Shown here piece by piece: positions 1,459 to 15,732 of a stretch of 17,684 nt of DNA; position 1 is the first letter of the stretch; every line of letters starts with the position of its first letter. Under the pieces are notes generated by a model. The model searched no databases and was not told the DNA's origin. It saw only the letters and a program-made list of their open reading frames with translations. Position numbers and translations under genes: made by a program. Source of the stretch: a virus (lineage: Duplodnaviria > Heunggongvirae > Uroviricota > Caudoviricetes). The stretch spans positions 1 to 17,684 of IMG/VR virus record IMGVR_UViG_2667527666_000002; one strand, written 5' to 3'.

Positions 1459-2596
1459 TTACACATCATTAGTACCTTCCTTATTTTTTGACTGGGACAA
1501 ATTTGGGACCGATGGGTTCAGGATCGAGTCTATTTGCCGTGCGTGTTCGGTAAGGTGATTAGGTGCAAGGTGAGCATATCGACGAACCATTTCGATAGAC
1601 TCCCAGCCTCCCATTTCCTGTAACACTGACAACGGGACTCCGGCTTGAACCAGCCAGCTTGCCCAGGTGTGTCTCAAGTCGTGAAATCTGAAATCATCAA
1701 TACCAGCCCGTCTCAGCGCCGCTTTCCAGGCTGTGTTTGCGTCATACCGCATCTTCCTGACCGTTGGCGCTTTCCTTGTACACAAATACCCAACGGTGAT
1801 GATTCCCGATTTGTTTTTTCAATACGCGACATGCAGTATCATTCAGCGCAACGCCAATTGCGCGGTTTGATTTACTCTCTTCCGGGTTTATCCATGCCAC
1901 CCGGCGCTGCATGTCTATTTGTTGCCATTCAAGGTTGATGATGTTCGAGCGTCTTAAGCCTGTTGCCAGTGCAAATTCAACAACAGACTTTAATGGCTCC
2001 GGACATTCATCAATCAGCCTTTGTGCTTCATGGGGCTCCAGCCAGCGGATCCGTTTATTCTTTGGTTGAGGCACTTTAATAATTGGTGCCTTATCCAGCA
2101 TTTTCCATTCACGCTCTGCGGCTCTTAGTAGGGCCTTTATAAATGAAAGATGCGTAGCCTTTGTTGCAACGGACGCTGGTTTTGGCATGTATTCTGGAAC
2201 AGGTTTCCCTTTTTTTCTGCATGCTTCTGCCCTGAGTTTCCAGTTTTCCTCATGACGCCGGTTCGTCATTTTCTGCATTGCTGAATAAATTTTTGATTCA
2301 GTAATGTCTCTTAGTTGCATTCCTGCGAAATGTTGAAGCCAGAATCCGATCCGGCTTTTGTCATCGTCCAGTGATTTTTTATGTGCTTTCTCTTCGAGCC
2401 ACCTGATACACGCCTCCTCGAACGTCATATCAGGTATTTCACCAAGTTTGCTGACCCGCCATGCTTCAGCCTTTAGCTTGTCATGGAGCTCTGTCGCCTG
2501 CCTTTTGTCCTTTGTTCCAAGAGACTGTTTAAATCTTTTACCGTTCGGCAATGTGAAACTGGCGTACCATATTTCACCTCTGCGGAAGAGTGACAT
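1459..2596 (-). pseudogene. int: Phage tyrosine integrase, reading frame broken near 1742-1800 (N-terminal 284-aa frame plus C-terminal catalytic fragment in another frame)
   Basis: ORF 1742-2596 begins [14 protein letters not shown] with RBS GAGGAAA upstream of the ATG at 2596; the C-terminal ORF 1459-1785 carries the HxxR box ([11 protein letters not shown]) and the Tyr-containing VRRYAHL motif but lies in a different frame. The two frames overlap over 1742-1785, consistent with a 1-nt indel near aaggaaagcgcc. Confidence 0.7.
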
Positions 2597-2823
2597 TTTC
2601 TTTCCTCTGTTATGCCATCACCCGCGCTCACCAGGACAGTATGCAGCGGAGACTGAAGCGCCGCAATGCAGGCTTGTCGTGTTGTGAGGTAAGGAGATTT
2701 TAGTTTAGTGGGGTCTTTGCGTGTTGCCTGTAGGCGGCCTGTTCGTATCCAGTTGGTAGCGGTAGGTCTGGATATCTTGAGAAACTGACAGGCCTCATCG
2801 AGTGTGAGGCTGTATGGCTCCAT
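2473..2823 (-). CDS. xis: Excisionase / AlpA-family HTH DNA-binding protein
   Basis: Start ATG at 2823 ([31 protein letters not shown], an Xis/AlpA-type HTH) overlaps the stop of the upstream gene as TAATG. The frame stays open to 2473, overlapping the int start by about 124 nt, so the true C-terminus is uncertain. Confidence 0.6.
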
Positions 2824-3128
2824 TATTTCACCTCTTGCTGTGTCATTGTTGAAAAATGGATACCAGCTCGTTGCTGCCAGACGATCCAACCGAGAGTCAT
2901 ATCCCATGCCATGTATTCGTTATCGCCGTTTTTTGCTCTCCGACGATCTACTAAGTCACCGAAACGCTTTTCCATGAATAATTCATAGGCTTCGCGTTCA
3001 TCTGGCTCTACTTCCAGAGATACGAGTGCGATTTCATAAGCACGGCGCTCAATATCGTCTCGAACCTCTAGGCTGCTGATTCGTTCTTTGATTTCTTTAA
3101 TCAGTTCTTTATTGGTAAATGTGGTCAT
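2823..3128 (-). CDS. Hypothetical early-left phage protein, 101 aa, acidic (yfdT-like by position and length, from memory)
   Basis: ORF with ATG at 3128 overlapping the upstream gene's stop (TAATG coupling); protein-like composition; last gene but one before xis in a co-directional operon. Confidence 0.55.
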   Translation of the reverse strand: MTTFTNKELIKEIKERISSLEVRDDIERRAYEIALVSLEVEPDEREAYELFMEKRFGDLVDRRRAKNGDNEYMAWDMTLGWIVWQQRAGIHFSTMTQQEVK

Positions 3129-3490
3129 TATGCTCCAGCCTCCGGTGCTTTTGGCATTACTGCCCAGTGAGTGATATTGACGTTTTCAAGGTCCCCGACC
3201 TGAAATGTCCACTGCCATTCTCCGGTTTCTTTTTGTCCCCAGGTGTACCAGAGAGAACGCCAGCCAATCAGCCAGCCTTCTCCATTAGCATCAAATAACA
3301 GAACACTTTCATTTGCTGGTGGCAGTTCAGCTGACACTGGTATTATTTTGTTTTCCAGTGCCGCACATTTAGCTTCAAGCGCGTCGAATTTACGTACCAG
3401 GTACTCAGCATTTGTTTCGTTCACTTTCAGATCTCGCGGTACACATTTCCCGCGAAGAAACCCTTCCATTTCGAAAACATTCATGCGCAT
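3128..3490 (-). CDS. DUF551-like phage protein, 120 aa
   Basis: C-terminal ...NITHWAVMPKAPEAGA resembles the DUF551 C-terminal motif (recalled, not searched); start ATG at 3490 with GGAG 9 nt upstream; stop overlaps the next gene's start. Confidence 0.6.
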   Translation of the reverse strand: MRMNVFEMEGFLRGKCVPRDLKVNETNAEYLVRKFDALEAKCAALENKIIPVSAELPPANESVLLFDANGEGWLIGWRSLWYTWGQKETGEWQWTFQVGDLENVNITHWAVMPKAPEAGA

Positions 3491-4017
3491 TTGCGTAACT
3501 CCGATAAATCGTTAAAACGTTCCATAAACATCCCGTAGGCATGACCCGGTGCCAGTGGAATCACGTTGAACATCTCTGTTGCCGGGATGCCTTCCAGTAC
3601 AGGCCAGAAAGAGCCATCATCAAGCCCGAGATCGCGGCGTTCGGTTGCCAGCATGATGAGATCGGCATATTTCACGGGTGTACTCATAACTGGGGGTAAC
3701 CCGTATTTCTCACGGATTACGGCGTCTATTTTTTCTTCCATCCGTTTATAGTCAGGAAGAAGGCGTTTCAGTGGTGCGGGAATGTCCTGGCAATACGCTT
3801 CTGTTGCATCATGCATTAACGCTTCAAAAGCAAATTCCTGCGGCACCAGCTGGCTGCAAAGAACCGCATGTTGGGCGACGCTGTAGAAGTGCGAAAGATG
3901 ACCGGCAAAGCGACAGATATTTGAAAGGGAAACCGCGATATCGTTAATATCGATGTCGTCTTTATTTATCTTGTCATAATAAAAATGCTTCCCGGAAAAA
4001 GTTTTAATAAATGACAT
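3481..4017 (-). CDS. HD-domain phosphohydrolase (YfdR-like putative 5'-deoxynucleotidase), 178 aa
   Basis: Contains the H...HD metal-binding signature (SVAQHAV ... LMHDATEAY); start chosen at the ATG at 4017 (MSFIKTF) preceded by GGAG 8 nt upstream, rather than the GTG at 4044 used in the ORF track. Confidence 0.75.
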   Translation of the reverse strand: MSFIKTFSGKHFYYDKINKDDIDINDIAVSLSNICRFAGHLSHFYSVAQHAVLCSQLVPQEFAFEALMHDATEAYCQDIPAPLKRLLPDYKRMEEKIDAVIREKYGLPPVMSTPVKYADLIMLATERRDLGLDDGSFWPVLEGIPATEMFNVIPLAPGHAYGMFMERFNDLSELRKCA

Positions 4018-4110
4018 TTTGTTCTCCACGTATATGCACTGCACCGCGCTGAATTCTGGTAAAAGGAAGCCCTCACCATCCGGTGATTATTGAGTTAATT
4101 ACGTTTCCAT

Positions 4111-4132
4111 AAATGCCCCCGCAGGGGCATTT
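4111..4132 (-). terminator. Perfect 9-bp palindromic hairpin (AAATGCCCC-CGCA-GGGGCATTT) between the 274-aa gene and the HD gene; possible intra-operon attenuator
   Basis: Inverted repeat seen directly. The U residues lie within the stem ends rather than in a clean downstream U-tract, so terminator function is uncertain. Confidence 0.35.
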
Positions 4133-4144
4133 GCAGTAATGAAA

Positions 4145-4969
4145 TCAGGCGGTGAAAGTACCAATAAAGGTTTCTACTTTGCTGTCTTTGAATTTCTCAA
4201 CAAGCAGATCACGAAATTCGTTAGCCATTTCTTCCTGCACCGCTTCCAGCTGAATAATGCGCAGAACCAGTACAGGACGATCGCCAGTGATAATGCTGAG
4301 GCGTAATTTAAACGGACGTTCTTTCAGACCTTCAAACGGAACGCATTTAAATTCAAATGTCACTGGCATAATGTCTTTGGTCTTCGCTTCGACAGACTCC
4401 ATCAGGGAGCGTTTGCCGCTGAAGTCATTATCTTCAAAATCAGCGGTCTGGTTCGCTTCAATTGTGATTTTACGGATCGCCGCAGCCGCTTTGGTTGCCT
4501 GAATGGCGTCACCATTAGCATCAAAGCCCACAAGGTAGTCGGCCCAGTCTTCAATCCATTCTGCCAGTGACTTCTGGGAGTTACGCTCGCCGTTAACAGA
4601 CAACAGGGCAGAGAACGGTGCTGTCTTTTTCAGTTTGAGAGTGGCGGTGTTATCTGCGTGACCTGGTTCATCAATAGTACCCAGGTTAAGCACACTGACG
4701 GCTCGCATATTATCGGCATCGATAAAGCAGCGGGTGCCTTCATCTGCAAGATCTTTAGAATAACGGGTAAAGTCATCGATGCTGGCAGTGGAAAGCGCAC
4801 CACGGAAACGGAAGCGATTTAAATTAAATTTTTCCAGATCATGAATGCGGAAATTCTCAGGCAATGCCACAGCATCGGCACCAATCTTACTGATAATTTC
4901 ATTAACACCCTGAGCAGAAATAAGGGCATGGATTTGATTAATTGCGGTTGCGTCTAAGTTCTGAGACAT
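4145..4969 (-). CDS. Hypothetical phage protein, 274 aa (YfdQ-like)
   Basis: Long ORF with ATG at 4969 and GAGGA 8 nt upstream; size and neighbours (120-aa gene upstream, HD gene downstream) match the recalled yfdP-yfdQ-yfdR order of CPS-53. Confidence 0.7.
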
Positions 4970-5034
4970 AATAAGTCCTCACTATATAAAGATATTCAGT
5001 GATGAGATAAATAATCAGTTTATTAAGAACGATA

Positions 5035-5397
5035 TTAATGACCTGCTGCGCGTAGTTTTCCGTCAGGTTCACCGGCAAGAGTCAGTAATTGTCCCTGGTC
5101 TTCCTGCAGAATAGTCAGGCGACCACCGCGATTGACATACATCGGCGTTTCGGTGGTGTCTTCTTCGGAAATTTTCCCGCGGTTAGTTGGGCGAACATAT
5201 GAGAGTTTGTGTTTGATTTTCACACGGTTCTCATCAAACGGTTCGATTTCCAGGTTGAGCGAGACCTTACCTTTGGTTTTCGTGTTCATCACACCGGAAG
5301 CGACTTCACTGAGAACAGCGCCGATTTTGGTTTCAAATACGCCGCCGTCCAGCTCCCCGATAAATGCCTGCACATCAGTACTGCGTTCGCTAGCCAT
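5035..5397 (-). CDS. Hypothetical phage protein, 120 aa (YfdP-like); first gene of the leftward early operon
   Basis: Start set at the internal ATG at 5397 (MASERSTDVQ...) preceded by GAGGAG 9 nt upstream; the longer 197-aa ORF in the track has a non-protein-like N-terminal extension running into the structured leader. Confidence 0.65.
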   Translation of the reverse strand: MASERSTDVQAFIGELDGGVFETKIGAVLSEVASGVMNTKTKGKVSLNLEIEPFDENRVKIKHKLSYVRPTNRGKISEEDTTETPMYVNRGGRLTILQEDQGQLLTLAGEPDGKLRAAGH

Positions 5398-5445
5398 TTT
5401 GCTGCTCCTCATCATATCGACCCTGCAAGGTCGGTTGGTTTCTCC

Positions 5446-5580
5446 ACAAAACAGAGAAGAACACCTGCGGTGACTGCCGCCCGGATGGATTGGGTTATGA
5501 GCCCGTCGTCCGGTGATTCTCTTCTCTGTTTTGTAAAAAGAGCGGTACCAGCCGGAAGCAAGGGTACAAACTGGTACCGC
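5446..5580 (-). other. Structured element: perfect 15-bp inverted repeat (5446-5460 / 5520-5534, 59-nt spacer) followed by a 10-bp stem (5542-5551 / 5571-5580); candidate cis-acting RNA in the early-left leader
   Basis: Both inverted repeats read directly from the sequence; they lie about 50 nt upstream of the first early-left start codon in a region with no convincing ORF. The strand is assumed from the surrounding operon. Confidence 0.35.
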
Positions 5581-5999
5581 CAAAGCAGTGGCTGTTGTGG
5601 TGGGGTTGTCACTCAGGCGTATGGTCAACCTGACAATCCGGTGCCCTCAACGGGGAAAGAGTAACCCCGCCATACTTACCGCCGCGCCATTTCGCGGATT
5701 ACCACAACGCTGAGAGCACTTAGCCAGTTACGGCACCACACTTTGTCGCGGCTCCATAAATGCCCTCATCGTTGCACCCTGGTCTCTTCCCAGGCGTCAA
5801 ACCGAATCGCCACGCTGGTTAGGCGTCTTATCAGCATCATCATTGACTTGCACATTCCGGCTACCTGGTTTGTTTGCCCGAGCAAGGAGTGGATTGTCCC
5901 CTTTAACGTCCCCAGACCGCTAACGACGCATGTGCCATACGCCGTGTTACAACCAAATTTTGTTAGTACCTTGTTTGTTTGTCTGGAAAGAAAGATAAA

Positions 6000-6050
6000 A
6001 TGAAGTTGCGCATTATGCAAGTGTTTTTGTTGCGAGATATGCAATTTAAA
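6000..6050 (-). promoter_or_regulatory. Candidate OL/pL: two operator-like sites TTGCGCATTATGCAA (6006-6020) and TTGCGAGATATGCAA (6030-6044)
   Basis: Two 15-bp TTGCG-N5-TGCAA dyads 24 bp apart, matching the motif found in the cI-cro intergenic region; located just beyond the end of cI where lambdoid phages place OL/pL. Promoter -35/-10 hexamers are not confidently assigned. Confidence 0.45.
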
Positions 6051-6061
6051 GGGTAATGAAA

Positions 6062-6079
6062 AGCCACCTTTGGGTGGCT
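6062..6079 (-). terminator. Candidate terminator of the repressor gene (stem AGCCACC / GGTGGCT, 4-nt loop)
   Basis: Hairpin about 20 nt beyond the cI stop on the minus strand, followed there by UUU then CAUUACCCUUUAAAUU; the U-tract is short, so the call is moderate. Confidence 0.4.
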
Positions 6080-6099
6080 AATTGATGAGGAGGTAAGGG

Positions 6100-6792
6100 T
6101 TAATTGTGTCGCTTAAGGGTTTGTGACTGGCTGATTAAGACCTTTCCAAAGACCATAAACCGGTGTTCATTTTCGCTGGTAATTCCCCATTCACGGTAAA
6201 TCTGGTTATCAGAAATCACCAGTAGTTTGTCAGGTATCATTTGCAGTCGTTTGACATAAATTTTATCATCAAAACCAAATACATAGATACCATCTCCATC
6301 AAACTGATTGATACTGACATCAACGAAGATGAGATCTCCTGGCTCAATGGTTGGACACATACTGTCCCCACGAACGTTGATAACTTTAATGTGATTGGCT
6401 GGCCGTCCGCCAAACATCGATACAGCATTATCAGTTCTGTATTCAATGGCATGAATCACATCAATGACATCACCGCCCTGGATAAGGCCATTTCCCGCAC
6501 TGGCACTGACATCCAGCATTTCAATACGGAATACATCCTTCACCTGCGCAACATCCTCACTAATACTGTTTTTACATACAGTATTACTTTTGACGTCTGA
6601 GGTAAAGAGATCAGCAATATCAACACCTAAGCTCCTGGCAATATTACTCAGGGCTTGTTCAGTGAATTGTTTCTGCTTACCTGTTTCCAGGCGTGAGATA
6701 TTCGCCGCATCCACTCCTATTGCTTCAGCGAGATCGGCGATTTTCATGTTCTTCGCCTGGCGAAGTTGTCTGACTCGGTTTCCTATGTTCAT
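6100..6792 (-). CDS. cI: CI-like prophage repressor (N-terminal XRE-type HTH, C-terminal S24/LexA-type self-cleaving peptidase), 230 aa
   Basis: N-terminal HTH (IADLAEAIGVDAANISRLETG); Ala-Gly cleavage-site candidate (SASAGNG); catalytic Ser in GDSM and Lys in YVKRL; divergent from a Cro-like gene. Confidence 0.9.
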   Translation of the reverse strand: MNIGNRVRQLRQAKNMKIADLAEAIGVDAANISRLETGKQKQFTEQALSNIARSLGVDIADLFTSDVKSNTVCKNSISEDVAQVKDVFRIEMLDVSASAGNGLIQGGDVIDVIHAIEYRTDNAVSMFGGRPANHIKVINVRGDSMCPTIEPGDLIFVDVSINQFDGDGIYVFGFDDKIYVKRLQMIPDKLLVISDNQIYREWGITSENEHRFMVFGKVLISQSQTLKRHN

Positions 6793-6889
6793 GCGTTTAT
6801 TACATTTCTTTATTGCGCGTTAAGCAAATCAACTTGCGCAAAATATTTGCGTGAAATAATATGCTCATCACGCAATATGTGGAGGTCAT
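6793..6889. promoter_or_regulatory. Immunity-region operator/promoter (OR with divergent pRM and pR): operator TTGCGCGTTAAGCAA (6813-6827), palindrome CGCAAAATATTTGCG (6837-6851), candidate pR -35 TTGCGC (6834-6839) and -10 TAATAT (6857-6862)
   Basis: 97-bp divergent intergenic region between cI and cro containing dyad repeats of the same TTGCG family as the OL candidates, with centres 24 bp apart; sigma70-like hexamers with 17-bp spacing upstream of cro. Confidence 0.6.
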
Positions 6890-8035: not shown

Positions 8036-8055
8036 AGGTCGGTCATGAGCACTAA
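7834..8055 (+). CDS. Hypothetical small protein, C-terminal frame (...[39 protein letters not shown]...); true start unclear (a TTG near 7876 follows GAAGGAG)
   Basis: Protein-like frame whose stop at 8053-8055 overlaps the next gene's start at 8045 by 11 nt, as expected for a genuine operon member. Confidence 0.3.
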
Positions 8056-8386
8056 ATTAACCGGCTATGTATGGGATGGTTGCGCTGCGTCAGGCATGAA
8101 ATTATCCAGCGTGGCAATTATGGCCCGCCTGGCTGATTTCAGTAATGACGAAGGTGTGTGCTGGCCATCAATTGAAACTATTGCCCGTCAGATTGGCGCG
8201 GGGATGAGTACCGTCAGAACGGCTATCGCACGGCTGGAAGCAGAAGGCTGGTTAACGCGTAAGGCGCGTCGCCAGGGTAACCGCAATGCGTCGAATGTTT
8301 ATCAGCTTAACGTTGCGAAGCTTCAGGCAGCGGCATTTTCTCAACTGTCAGATTCTGACCCGTCAAAATCTGACGCATCAAAATGA
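8045..8386 (+). pseudogene. Replication-initiator (O-like / winged-HTH N-terminal domain) gene, 3'-truncated by the IS629 insertion
   Basis: N-terminal HTH-type domain ([13 protein letters not shown]...SIETIARQIGAGMSTVRTAIARLEAEGWL); the ORF ends on the TGA formed by the first three bases of the IS inverted repeat (8384-8386); no C-terminal domain. Confidence 0.6.
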
Positions 8387-8425
8387 ACCGCCCCGGGTTT
8401 CCTGGAGAGTGTTTTATCTGTGAAC

Positions 8426-9316
8426 TCAGGCTGCCAGATCATCGTTTCCGATGGAAGCATAATAAGCTTTTTCTGCTTCTGCCGGAGGAGTATGGCCCAG
8501 CCTTTCCAGCAATCGTCGATTGTTATACCAGTCCACCCACGTGAGTGTGGCCAGTTCCACTTCTGCACGGTTTTTCCAGCTCTTACGGTGTATTACCTCC
8601 GCTTTGTAAAGACCATTGATGCTCTCCGCCATCGCGTTGTCATACGAGTCGCCTGTACTTCCTGTTGATGCCAGTAATCCGGCTTCCTTAAGCCGCTGTG
8701 TGTAGGCCAGCGATACATACTGAGAACCTTTATCACTGTGATGGACCGTGCCGGACGGTCGACGGGCCCATAACGCCTGCTCCAGTGCATCCAGCACGAA
8801 TGTCGTTTCCATGGACGATGAGACCCGCCACCCCACGATGTATCCGGCAAACACATCAATGATGAACGCCACATAGACGAAGCCCCGCCATGTGCTGACG
8901 TAAGTAAAATCAGCCACCCACAGCTGGTCAGGTCGTTCTGCCACGAACTGACGGTTTACGCGGTCGCCTGCGGCAACGGCTTTCCGGCTGATGGTCGTAC
9001 GGACCTTTTTACCCCGGAGAACACCGGCAAGTCCCATAACCGCCATGAGACGTGCCACAGTGCATCTGGCCACTCTGATACCTTCCCGTAACAACTGACG
9101 CCAGACTTTACGCACACCGTATACCTTGTGATTTTCATCGTATACGCGCTGTATCTCTTTCTTCAGCCAGTCATCGCGCTGCGCACGGGCACTGCGTTTA
9201 TCCGGATGATGTCGCTGTTGCTGACAGTGGTAATACGTTGACGGGGCAATATGCAGTTCGCTGCATAGCGGTCCGACCCCGTACTGCTCACGCAGCTTAT
9301 CCAGCAGTGGCATCAT
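8426..9316 (-). CDS. IS629-like transposase OrfB (DDE/integrase catalytic domain), 296 aa
   Basis: Translation [29 protein letters not shown]... with a DDE-type core (WVADFTYV ... HSDKGSQY ... [10 protein letters not shown]). Confidence 0.9.
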
Positions 9317-9639
9317 TTTTTCCAGAGGCGGTCGAACTCCGCCTTCGCAAAATAAGCGGAAGCCTGGCGAAGGATATCGTTACTGCGGCGCAGTTCACGA
9401 TTTTCACGTTCCAGCTCTTTCAGACGCTGACGTTCAGCGGTGGTGAGCCCTCCATCACCGCCCCCGGTATCCCGCTCATGCTGGCGAACCCAGACACGCA
9501 GAGTCTCCGGCGTACAGCCAATCTTTGGAGCAATGGAACAAATTGTCGCCCATTGTGAGTCATATTCGCTCTGACTTTCCAGAACCATACGGACTGCCCG
9601 TTGACGGACTTCGGGGGAAAAACGAGTATTTTTAGTCAT
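9313..9639 (-). CDS. IS629-like transposase OrfA (HTH), 108 aa
   Basis: Translation [42 protein letters not shown]...; identical to the orfA of the second copy at 17358-17684. Confidence 0.9.
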
Positions 9640-9693
9640 CCTGTTTACCTCTTTCTCAGGAAGTTTAGTCTCCAGGATTCCCGGGGCGGTTCA

Positions 9694-12773: not shown

Positions 12774-12790
12774 TTTTGTGGAGAAAGTTG

Positions 12791-13174
12791 ATGCGTGATA
12801 TTCAGATGGTTCTTGAGCGTTGGGGAGCGTGGGCGGCTAATAATCATGAAGATGTGACCTGGTCGTCCATTGCCGCCGGTTTTAAGGGATTAATTCCTTC
12901 AAAAGTAAAATCTCGCCCGCAATGTTGTGACGATGACGCGATGATCATTTGCGGGTGCATGGCCCGTCTGAAAAAGAACAACAGCGATTTGCACGATTTA
13001 TTAGTAGATTATTATGTAGTCGGTATGACATTCATGTCACTGGCAGGTAAGCATTGCTGCTCTGATGGTTATATCGGGAAAAGGTTACAAAAAGCTGAGG
13101 GCATAATTGAAGGGATGTTAATGGCATTAGATATCTGGTTAGAGATGGATATCGTTGTTAATAACTCTAATTAA
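12791..13174 (+). CDS. Q: Late-gene antitermination protein Q (short Q family), 127 aa
   Basis: Start at the ATG at 12791 with GGAG 8 nt upstream (the ORF track's 12776 start is a TTG); last gene of the nin-like block, in the position Q occupies upstream of the lysis cassette. Confidence 0.7.
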
Positions 13175-13207
13175 TATGCCAATTGTTTACTAAAAATTAT
13201 TAAAAAT

Positions 13208-13225
13208 GGGGCGTTGAGACGCCCC
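13208..13225 (-). terminator. Candidate intrinsic terminator for the porin gene (stem GGGGCGT / ACGCCCC, 4-nt loop, followed on the minus strand by AUUUUUAAUAAUUUUU)
   Basis: Hairpin and U-rich tract read directly; lies about 140 nt beyond the porin stop, after three further hairpins. Confidence 0.4.
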
Positions 13226-13363
13226 CAAAAATAAAGGGTAATATATAACAGAAGGTTTATATAGTTAGAAGCAAGGTTGTGCTTCTAAAGGAAGTGGCTT
13301 GAGGGAGCCACTTATATGTTGGGGAGGCAACGCCTCCCGCAACATATCTTTTTCGTAATCAGA

Positions 13364-14446
13364 TTAGAACTGGTAAACCAGACCTACAGCAACGATGTCA
13401 TCAGTATCAATACCAGCTGTTTTGGTAAACTTACTATCGTCAATTAAGTTGATTTTGTAATCAACAAAAGTGGACATGTTTTTATTAAAGTAGTAAGTAG
13501 CACCGACATCGACATACTTGACTAAGTCTCGGTCACCATGAACACCAAGGTCTTTACCTTTTGACTGAAGGTAAGCAACAGATGGGCGCAGACCGAAGTC
13601 AAACTGATATTGTGCTACTGCTTCAAAGTTTTGTGCTTTGTTTGCAATATGGTTATTACCAAAAACGGTCATATTCTGAGTTTCAGAATATGTGGTAGCC
13701 AGATAGATATTGTTCGCATCATATTTCAGGCCTGCAGCCCATACTTCCGCATTTTTGCCGGAGGCATTGAATTTGCTCTTACCATAGGCGACCTGACCGT
13801 CAGTGCGATCTGATTTAGCATAGGTTGCACCCACGCCGAATCCTTCATACTCATAAGTAGTGGAGAAACCGAAACCATCACCATTGGCTTCAGTTACGTC
13901 AGTGCGGTCATTTTTACCCTGATACTGAGCAGCAAAGTTCAGGCCATCGACCAGACCAAAGAAGTCGTTGTTACGATAAGTTGCAACACCAGTAGTGCGA
14001 CCAGTCATGAACACATCTGTTTGGGTCCAGGTATCACCACCGAATTCTGGCAGGACGTCAGTCCACGCACCGATGTCGTATGCTACACCGTAGTTACGGC
14101 CGTAATCGATTGAGCCGTAATCACCAAATTTCAGGCCTGCAAATGCAAGACGGGTTTTGTCTTTGGAAGAACCTTGAGATTCAGCGCGGTTGCCTTTGAA
14201 TTCATATTCCCACTGACCGAAACCAGTCAGTTGATCGTTGATTTGGGTTTCACCTTTGAAGCCAAGACGGGCATAAGTAGTATCACCATCATCTGCATCA
14301 TTAGAGGAGAAGTAGTGCTTAGCATTAACTTTCCCGTACAGATCCAGCTTGTTACTGTCTTTATTATAAATTTCAGCTGCCTGAGCAGACATCGCCATCA
14401 GTACTGATGCAGCTACAGCAGAAATTGCCACTGTTAATTTTTTCAT
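13364..14446 (-). CDS. General-diffusion outer-membrane porin, OmpC/NmpC/Lc family, 360 aa precursor
   Basis: Signal peptide ending AQA-AE; mature N-terminus [17 protein letters not shown] typical of OmpC-family porins; C-terminal ...VGLVYQF beta-barrel signature; opposite strand to flanking phage late genes. Confidence 0.92.
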
Positions 14447-14874
14447 CGTGAGCCCTTTTTTTTGAACTATTATTAAAAAATGATGTCACTGCGCGATAAA
14501 TATTCATCTAATCAATGTGATTATTTCAAGATGTAAGTTTTGGTTTCTCGTTTGATTTGTGAAGTAGATCTCTATTTTTATCTGAACTTTTTTCTATCGA
14601 ATCCTATTCATAGCTCTTGGCTGAATAAAAATAAATCTATTAGCCAATTTATACTAACGGTTGTTATTTATAAGTGCTCTATAATTTGAAGGTTCAATTT
14701 AAATCGGCTAAAAATAACACTGGAAATTATTTGTTGGTTATTTGTTGAGATTTGCTTATGTATTTGTAGTGGTGTTTTCAATACTCGGTAGCATTCTCGC
14801 AAATATCATTTAGTGGTTTACGTACGTAAAAAATTGGTTATGCTGTTAAGAGTGGTTACTTCGTCACACAGCTT

Positions 14875-14908
14875 AAACCCGCCGTCGAGCGGGTTTTTCC
14901 ATTTTTTG
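14875..14908 (+). terminator. Intrinsic terminator (8-bp stem AAACCCGC / GCGGGTTT, then TTTTTCCATTTTTT), candidate tR' about 115 bp upstream of the holin gene
   Basis: Perfect stem followed by a T-rich tract on the plus strand; no plus-strand gene ends upstream, consistent with a short terminated late-promoter leader transcript. Confidence 0.6.
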
Positions 14909-15019
14909 AGTCTCGATATTAGCTGATAACCCAATACCTGAGTTATTCACTGACTTCGAGTCTGTTACGTTTCGTAGTATTCCCTCAATTTACACCCGCT
15001 TTGTCTGCGAGGTGGGGTT

Positions 15020-15235
15020 ATGAAATCCATGGATAAGTTAACAACGGGTGTCGCCTATGGCACCTCAGCAGGTAGTGCCGGGTACTGGTTTTTACAGCTG
15101 CTAGATAAAGTCACGCCCTCACAGTGGGCGGCAATTGGAGTGCTGGGTAGCCTGGTATTTGGCCTGCTGACGTACCTGACAAACCTTTATTTCAAGATTA
15201 AAGAAGATAAGCGTAAGGCTGCGAGAGGTGAATAA
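15020..15235 (+). CDS. S: Phage-21-type class II holin (pinholin), 71 aa
   Basis: Two predicted TM helices with the glycine-zipper-like [10 protein letters not shown]; basic C-terminus [11 protein letters not shown]; stop overlaps the endolysin start (TAATG). Confidence 0.9.
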
Positions 15236-15732
15236 TGTCGCCATCATTACGCAAGGCTGTAGCAGCTGCTATTGGTGGTGGGGCTGTTGCCATAGCGTCT
15301 GTGCTCATCACTGGTCCGAGTGGTGACGATGGTCTGGAAGGTGTCAGCTACATACCATATAAAGATATTGTTGGTGTATGGACTGTATGTCACGGGCATA
15401 CAGGAAAAGACATCATGCTCGGTAAAACGTATACCAAAGCAGAATGCAAAGCACTCTTGAATAAAGACCTTGCCACTGTCGCCAGACAAATTAACCCGTA
15501 CATCGAAGTCGATATACCGGAAACAACGCGCGGCGCTCTTTACTCATTCGTTTACAACGTGGGTGCTGGCAATTTCAGAACATCGACGCTTCTTCGCAAA
15601 ATAAACCAGGGCGATATCAAAGGCGCATGTGATCAGCTACGGCGCTGGACATACGCTGGCGGTAATCAATGGAAAGGACTGATGACTCGCCGTGAGATTG
15701 AGCGTGAAGTCTGTTTGTGGGGGAAACAATGA
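15235..15732 (+). CDS. R: SAR (signal-anchor-release) endolysin, lysozyme-like, 165 aa
   Basis: N-terminal Gly/Ala-rich SAR domain ([20 protein letters not shown]) followed by a lysozyme-type catalytic domain; stop overlaps the Rz start (ATGA). Confidence 0.92.

Follow-up and report, generated by a model that had tools for sequence, protein, structure and literature searches.

The window analysed here is a 17,684-nucleotide (nt) stretch of viral DNA (Caudoviricetes; IMG/VR record IMGVR_UViG_2667527666_000002). We examined five genes within it that an earlier note, made from the sequence alone, had described as a tightly coupled accessory cassette with an HD-domain phosphohydrolase and a possible role in host takeover, superinfection exclusion or anti-defence. 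Five co-directional open reading frames (ORFs) were found on the minus strand between the excisionase gene xis (2823..2473) and a repressor gene (6792..6100), with exactly the coordinates, sizes and order that the note had given. From upstream to downstream, with sizes in amino acids (aa), they are:

5035..5397, minus strand: yfdP, 120 aa; phrog_204 at E 1e-49; 119/120 residues identical to K-12 YfdP.
4145..4969, minus strand: yfdQ, 274 aa; Pfam DUF2303 (PF10065) at E 8e-93; phrog_210; 272/274 identical to K-12.
3481..4017, minus strand: yfdR, 178 aa; HD domain; phrog_318 at E 5e-110; 177/178 identical to K-12.
3128..3490, minus strand: yfdS, 120 aa; N-terminal coiled-coil-like segment and C-terminal DUF551; phrog_583; 120/120 identical to K-12.
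2823..3128, minus strand: yfdT, 101 aa; phrog_660; 99/101 identical to K-12.

Judged from sequence identity, the cassette is yfdP-yfdQ-yfdR-yfdS-yfdT, a gene set already known from prophage CPS-53 of Escherichia coli K-12 and from Shigella phage SfV. The likeness to the CPS-53 genes that the earlier note had pointed out is borne out by the residue counts above, which were obtained against the CPS-53 copies of a K-12-like genome. The order P-Q-R-S-T, the sizes of 120/274/178/120/101 aa and the position upstream of xis also match what is annotated in the K-12-like and SfV records. Megablast searches recovered at least 80% of positions 2400-6150 of the window in 983 out of 5426 complete genomes of E. 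coli, with matches falling under features named yfdP, yfdQ, yfdR and yfdT. The best genome match (98.7%) had the same proA-thrW-int-xis-yfdT...yfdP-repressor arrangement as the window. Within a phage collection, the same stretch was 97% identical to SfV (orf28-32), SfIV, PhiR phages and Stx2c phages. The element that carries the cassette is an SfV-like lambdoid prophage at thrW that has decayed and become defective.

The five proteins fall into PHROGs 204, 210, 318, 583 and 660 for P, Q, R, S and T, and only 318 carries a name (deoxyribonucleoside 5' monophosphate phosphatase). For YfdP, a 99%-identical cluster representative has a precomputed PF27127 ('YfdP') annotation. YfdQ matched the DUF2303 model with 311 bits (gathering score 26.6) over residues 7-272 of 274. 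DUF2303 comprises 1738 clusters at 50% identity and is uniform in length; among its top 150 representatives, all were single-domain proteins of ~250-300 aa or shorter fragments, and no domain fusion offered a functional clue. Neither YfdP nor YfdQ gave an informative fold match. In the predicted structure of YfdQ, invariant residues lie in or beside low-confidence loops (RFRFRG at 52-57 and PGHADN at 102-107), and we speculate that these loops might become ordered upon oligomerisation or ligand binding.

The HD assignment of YfdR was upheld, since residues H50, H69-D70, D78 and D118 fall on the motif positions of Agrobacterium tumefaciens Atu1052 (PDB 2gz4; E 4e-14) in an alignment spanning residues 18-175. 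The HD fold and the H...HD...D metal ligands are common to YfdR, Atu1052 and E. coli YfbR. Under curated thresholds, however, YfdR scored 24.1 against 25.9 bits for the Pfam YfbR-like family, 16.8 against 22.5 for HD_3 and 19.9 against 122 for the NCBIfam equivalog model NF003009, and DnaA binding is a feature of YfdR that is undescribed for YfbR. By these sequence comparisons, YfdR is an HD-fold relative rather than a YfbR equivalog. The DUF551 domain (PF04448) named for YfdS in the earlier note was recovered marginally over residues 50-117, with 22.2 bits where the cut-off is 22, and YfdT matched no Pfam family. The N- and C-terminal halves of YfdS are shared with other PHROGs and the N-terminus of YfdT with phrog_60/5117/3323; the N-terminal parts of both proteins match segments of other, larger PHROG families. 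Ea22/DUF551 proteins have been described as mosaic (PMC10834534), and the segment matches of YfdS and YfdT fit that picture.

Nothing supported the superinfection-exclusion or anti-defence roles raised in the earlier note, and all five proteins were without a PADLOC match at E<=0.01, the PADLOC models covering defence and not anti-defence. We also considered a hidden recombinase or Gam-like family and rejected it, as no cassette protein resembled Red-beta/RecT/ERF/Rad52/Sak4, Exo/YqaJ, Gam/Abc2 or SSB by sequence or fold.

Each gene is preceded, at 7-10 nt, by a Shine-Dalgarno-like GGAG/GAGG. The yfdR/yfdS junction, ATGCGCATGA, overlaps by 10 nt (or as ATGA, should translation begin at the second ATG), and the yfdS/yfdT and yfdT/xis junctions are each TAATG, so that start and stop codons are coupled. 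In contrast, 65 nt separate yfdP from yfdQ, and 127 nt, including a hairpin, separate yfdQ from yfdR. The tight coupling by overlapping start and stop codons described in the earlier note thus extends to no more than three of five junctions (R/S, S/T and T/xis) and fails at P|Q and Q|R.

Upstream of yfdP, ~700 nt up to the repressor gene are untranslated. The features of this region, and the hairpin between yfdQ and yfdR, are:

6100..6792, minus strand: CI-type repressor gene; Pfam Peptidase_S24 at E 6e-19 with HTH_3/26/31; annotated in the best-matching genome as an XRE family regulator.
6062..6079, minus strand: terminator-like hairpin just 3' of the repressor gene, AGCCACCCAAAGGTGGCT followed by TTTTC (consensus scan).
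6006-6020 and 6030-6044: two operator-like inverted repeats, TTGC-N7-GCAA (OL-like), just past the repressor hairpin.
5398..6005, minus strand: untranslated leader of ~600 nt, from the operator region to yfdP; no coding sequence is annotated here in a near-identical genome.
4111-4132, minus strand: stem-loop AAAUGCCCC-UGCG-GGGGCAUUU, 12 nt past the yfdQ stop codon.

The window holds three exact matches to TTGC-N7-GCAA, the third lying between the repressor gene and cro (6813-6827). The chance expectation is 0.79, and three or more matches were reached in 8 of 200 shuffles. A further repeat with one mismatch lies at 6861-6875; such repeats are confined to two regions flanking the repressor gene. 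The repeats fit candidate OL and OR operators with a putative PL promoter, which would make the cassette a repressor-controlled early-left operon.

The leader was also examined as a possible known RNA, and this was rejected: it had no Rfam match whether the gathering score or E<=1 was applied, contained no tRNA, and gave a fold z-score of only -1.9. It is relatively GC-rich. Parts of it (~5600-5710, 5700-5945 and 5847-5958) are 83-92% identical to unannotated DNA located directly beside tRNA genes elsewhere, in one case by a tRNA-Arg between the terminase and portal genes of a prophage, and in another by a tRNA-Ile within an array of tRNA genes on a 90-kb plasmid, which has a DNA pacase gene as well.

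Past yfdQ, 34 non-identical loci drawn from many genera have a hairpin where the window has its stem-loop, and RNAalifold on 16 sequences predicted 10 pairs, of which 6 show compensatory changes. The stem-loop is flanked by A-rich and U-rich sequence with no clean U-run, and is unannotated in SfV. The stem-loop may be a weak terminator, or a 3'-end or mRNA stabiliser, that closes the P-Q unit.

To follow the cassette beyond this prophage, three samples were compared: 80 viral contigs with YfdQ 99-100% identical (single-protein scan), 70 loci from a one-genome-per-species collection, and 80 viral contigs found with a profile of distant YfdQ homologues. The first sample holds near-identical copies only and cannot test distant co-conservation; hence the profile-based scans. 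Gene patterns were counted at loci with enough flanking DNA (73, 65 and 73, respectively):

Near-identical YfdQ, 73 E. coli loci: PQRST 27, PQRS- 21, PQR-T 3, PQR-- 22, PQ--- 0, -Q--- 0.
Species-level genomes, 65 loci: PQRST 2, PQRS- 1, PQR-T 0, PQR-- 43, PQ--- 18, -Q--- 1.
Diverse viral contigs, 73 loci: PQRST 11, PQRS- 8, PQR-T 0, PQR-- 42, PQ--- 12, -Q--- 0.

The gene yfdP lay directly upstream of yfdQ in ~97% of loci (68/70 species-level and 77/80 diverse viral), including genomes of Hahella, Pseudomonas, Alcanivorax, Limnohabitans and Hydrogenophaga, and the pair spans Enterobacterales to Xanthomonas, Vibrio and Hahella phages. Depending on the sample, yfdR followed P-Q in ~70-100% of loci. 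By comparison, 48/73 close loci and 3/65 species-level loci carried yfdS, and 30/73 and 2/65, respectively, carried yfdT. The five genes are therefore not co-conserved as a block, an outcome that the earlier note had named as speaking against its proposal and that applies in part: P-Q(-R) is kept while S and T vary. The conserved core is P-Q, often with R, and S and T are exchangeable add-ons even within E. coli prophages. Most enterobacterial loci lie on one prophage backbone (repressor, CII-like, replication gene and integrase), so co-occurrence there partly reflects common descent, and the distant loci are the more informative.

At these distant loci, the pair belongs to a DNA-metabolism operon, with SSB and recombination genes as neighbours. 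A Hahella prophage has the order exonuclease-like, Gp157, YfdP, YfdQ, SSB; Xanthomonas phage MET23-P3 has YfdP, DUF2303, two unknown genes, ERF, an 81-aa ORF, YqaJ and SSB; and Vibrio phage VvAW1 has an exonuclease followed further on by a YfdP-like protein, DUF2303, a hypothetical protein and SSB. Burkholderia phage JC1 encodes RecT, YqaJ and a DUF2303 protein, the latter unexpectedly detected in virions. Among the 80 diverse viral loci, 9 had SSB directly 3' of yfdQ. In GenBank, the MET23-P3 yfdP homologue (8881-9255 of its record) bears the label 'translation elongation factor', apparently by an annotation error.

A structure is available for this distant branch. PDB entry 9O7M, 'YfdQ Protein', contains 36 chains of a DUF2303 protein of 274 aa, the same length as YfdQ of the window, to which it aligned over the full length (E 9e-45). 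Its sequence is 99% identical to the MET23-P3 protein, whose gene is likewise preceded by a yfdP homologue, and is distant (35-46% identical) from the DUF2303 homologues tested by BLAST. In its phage, this gene is followed by the ERF/YqaJ/SSB module and not by yfdR. A literature search on 9O7M, DUF2303, PF10065, the PHROG identifiers and MET23-P3 found no relevant paper.

The earlier note had also proposed that the cassette replaces the recombination functions that lambda carries at this position. By position this holds in the window, where no exo/bet/gam-type gene was found between the operator region and xis. Elsewhere, however, P-Q adjoins full ERF/YqaJ/SSB or RecT/YqaJ modules, and the pair is therefore not a substitute for recombination functions. 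A 2025 survey of lambdoid phages found a yfbR/yfdQ/yfdP-like trio to be common in early-left operons, both with and without a Rec module, and its authors considered the trio unlikely to be a hidden recombinase for that reason (PMC12315714). Our neighbourhood data agree with the survey on the trio. YfdP-YfdQ is probably an older, autonomous two-gene module, to which yfdR is often and yfdS/yfdT are sometimes attached.

The function of the K-12 copies has been studied. The K-12 cluster was isolated as a multicopy suppressor of hda-185 over-initiation (Noguchi & Katayama 2016, PMC4776307). The minimal set for inhibition of oriC was yfdQ and yfdR together with either yfdS or yfdT, and yfdP was dispensable (PMC4776307). 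Initiation was inhibited by extra copies in the wild type and in dnaAcos, seqA, DARS-deleted and diaA strains, and oriC replication in vitro by extracts enriched in YfdQRST (PMC4776307). YfdR was specifically bound by DnaA through domain I, with DnaA Phe46 being important, and competed against DiaA and DnaB in binding to DnaA (PMC4776307). The authors suggested a lambda P-like role in the ancestral phage (PMC4776307). Of the roles raised in the earlier note, host takeover is thus the one with published K-12 support. With identities of 177/178 for YfdR and 272/274 for YfdQ, these properties should transfer to the locus in the window.

Together, the K-12 properties and the position of the operon behind operator-like sites make induction-triggered, early shut-off of host initiation the best-supported mechanism. 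In a lysogen, the CI-type repressor would keep the operon silent by way of the TTGC-N7-GCAA operators. On induction or infection, leftward transcription would run through the ~600-nt leader into yfdP and yfdQ, pass the conserved stem-loop and enter the overlap-coupled yfdR-yfdS-yfdT-xis(-int) genes. YfdR, an HD-fold protein, would bind DnaA domain I around Phe46 in competition with DiaA and DnaB, and YfdR and YfdQ with either YfdS or YfdT would block initiation at oriC, leaving the replication machinery to the phage. DnaA binding, the competition, the genetic requirement and the inhibition, both in vivo and with extracts, were demonstrated only for the K-12 proteins, 98-100% identical to those of the window, under overexpression; we infer the repressor control, the timing, the shut-off as the natural role and the contributions of YfdQ, YfdS and YfdT. 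On balance, we consider it probable, though not strongly so, that the region is an early-left (PL-type) operon that shuts off host replication initiation upon induction.

Several points weigh against this interpretation. The functional data all come from multicopy or overexpression experiments; deletion of yfdQRST had no replication phenotype, and the authors allowed for an overexpression artefact (PMC4776307). The gene yfdP, the most faithful partner of yfdQ, was dispensable in the oriC assay. P-Q occurs without R in 18 of the 65 species-level loci, and DnaA targeting is therefore not the core function of the pair. The promoter and its control by the repressor are read from sequence only.

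We weighed shut-off of host initiation against other explanations. In one of these, the unit of interest is the P-Q pair rather than the cassette of five: P-Q would be a widespread autonomous phage module that serves an undescribed step of phage DNA replication or host takeover, with the DnaA-binding YfdR as one exchangeable effector. The SSB and recombinase company, the putative large homo-oligomer, the stem-loop of its own, the lack of an informative relative for its fold and the breadth of the pair (~1,700 clusters at 50% identity, with a DUF2303 partner reported in Burkholderia phages too) are in keeping with such a module, and we regard this as a tentative possibility. A further proposal is that YfdP and YfdQ act as a large oligomer on phage DNA intermediates (single-stranded DNA, ends or forks) together with SSB and recombinases, the effect on DnaA being a side activity of the passenger yfdR. 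Here the occurrence of P-Q inside recombination/replication operons of unrelated backbones (MET23-P3, the Hahella prophage, VvAW1, and JC1 with RecT, YqaJ and DUF2303), the nine of 80 viral loci with SSB directly after yfdQ, the 36 YfdQ chains in 9O7M and the sensitivity of a yfdQ deletion to methyl methanesulfonate (MMS) and hydrogen peroxide (as cited in PMC4776307) can be set against the coexistence of the pair with complete Rec modules, without replacement (PMC12315714), and the lack of tight oriC binding by YfdQRST in vitro (PMC4776307). An early-operon neighbourhood is, moreover, weak functional evidence, and we consider this proposal unlikely.

The HD enzyme had led the earlier note to suggest manipulation of nucleotide pools. 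In that case YfdR would act mainly as a 5'-(deoxy)nucleotidase that alters deoxynucleoside mono- and triphosphate pools or destroys a nucleotide signal, to the benefit of the phage or against a host defence, the other proteins being accessory. YfdR retains its HD catalytic residues, which can be aligned to an HD-family structure, phrog_318 and RefSeq (gene name 5'-deoxynucleotidase) label it in this sense, and YfdR has been cited as a phosphatase active on cytidine monophosphate (CMP). However, a yfdR deletion was reported to give no rise in CMP yield, the YfbR-like score falls below the gathering cut-off (24.1 versus 25.9) and the NCBIfam equivalog score far below its own (19.9 versus 122), and PADLOC returned no matches. 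A weak nucleotidase activity of YfdR is known from second-hand reports, its nucleotide affinity is reported to be much weaker than that of YfbR, and a mainly enzymatic role appears quite improbable to us. A benefit to the lysogen, in which the expressed cassette would help the host to tolerate oxidative, acid or alkylation stress, draws on the greater hydrogen peroxide sensitivity of strains lacking CPS-53, yfdQ or yfdS and the greater MMS sensitivity of those lacking yfdQ (as cited in PMC4776307), and on the finding that YfdQ overproduction in K-12 affected the production of another phage, triggering plaque formation (bioRxiv 10.1101/413146). But the operon lies behind operator-like sites and the repressor gene is intact, so it should be silent in the lysogen; CPS-53 of K-12 has lost its control region, so the K-12 phenotypes may not mirror the native state; and the genes also occur on phages whose backbones differ, a setting in which a phage function in the early operon is likelier. 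Of the explanations considered, we find this one the least credible.

Shut-off of host initiation by a small DnaA-binding protein has precedents. Lambda P and Bacillus subtilis SirA are alike in outcome, each being a small mobile-element or developmental protein that binds DnaA and prevents initiation, and SirA and YfdR depend on the same DnaA domain I residue, Phe49/Phe46 (PMC4776307). Lambda P, in contrast, binds DnaA domain III and serves in addition as the helicase loader (PMC4776307). Neither protein has sequence or fold kinship to YfdR, which has an HD fold and needs YfdQ, along with YfdS or YfdT, in vivo.

The operon in the window was also compared with its two closest known counterparts. 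CPS-53 (KpLE1) contains the same five genes, which agree with those of the window in order and size and in their overlaps and intergenic gaps. There, however, the immunity region and PL are deleted and yfdP abuts a truncated replication gene, whereas the window keeps its immunity region, and CPS-53 lies near dsdC/argW rather than at thrW. The CPS-53 excisionase is the 66-aa TorI, unrelated to the 116-aa xis product of the window (15 identical positions in a global alignment), and the unrelated excisionases after yfdT thus place a mosaic junction right at the yfdT stop codon. In SfV (orf32-orf28), as in SfIV, PhiR and Stx2c phages, the same operon lies between xis and cI, and SfV likewise integrates at thrW by proA. 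DNA identity to SfV is ~97% over int-xis-T-S-R-Q-P, and the P, Q, R, S and T proteins are 95-100% identical (120/120, 270/274, 174/178, 115/120 and 97/101). The match ends ~185 nt upstream of yfdP, so that the leader and immunity region differ; SfV has orf33 and annotated terminators there. Compared with SfV, the prophage in the window is decayed, with a split int and an IS3 element in the replication gene.

The other features of the prophage and its flank are:

1-1254: proA, which opens the window.
1369-1444: tRNA-Thr (ARAGORN and Rfam), with the lambdoid prophage next to it.
1459..2596, minus strand: split tyrosine integrase gene adjoining tRNA-Thr, in ORFs 2596..1742 (284 aa) and 1785..1459 (108 aa).
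2473..2823, minus strand: xis, 116 aa; Pfam HTH_17 at E 2e-8; overlaps int by ~120 nt.
~8390-9650: IS3-family element with ORFs 9639..9313 and 9316..8426 and an ALIL frameshift pseudoknot at 9242-9358.
13364-14446, minus strand: general porin gene, 360 aa; Porin_1 at E 2e-151.

A near-identical locus has an intact 372-aa integrase where the window has two ORFs, an apparent frameshift, and the split int suggests that excision of the prophage has probably been lost. An equal 116-aa xis gene is annotated in the best-matching genome. The IS3 element interrupts the replication-initiator gene, of which 113 aa are left at 8045-8386 compared to 313 aa in relatives, and its insertion likewise points to a defective prophage. 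The surroundings are otherwise lambdoid, with repressor, cro, CII-like and replication genes in the window. Between the Q antiterminator gene (12776-13174) and a lysozyme gene (15235-15732), the porin gene runs along the opposite strand, in a low-GC island with low G+C at 13001-13500 and 14501-15000; it looks like a moron.

The cassette was already known and partly characterised, and our analysis rediscovers a named prophage operon. It also returns the 'orphan' genes of K-12 to their native regulatory setting of operators, leader and repressor. YfdP-YfdQ is among the commoner phage gene pairs that lack a known function. The set of genes required in experiments (Q and R with S or T) differs from the set conserved in evolution (P and Q, often with R).

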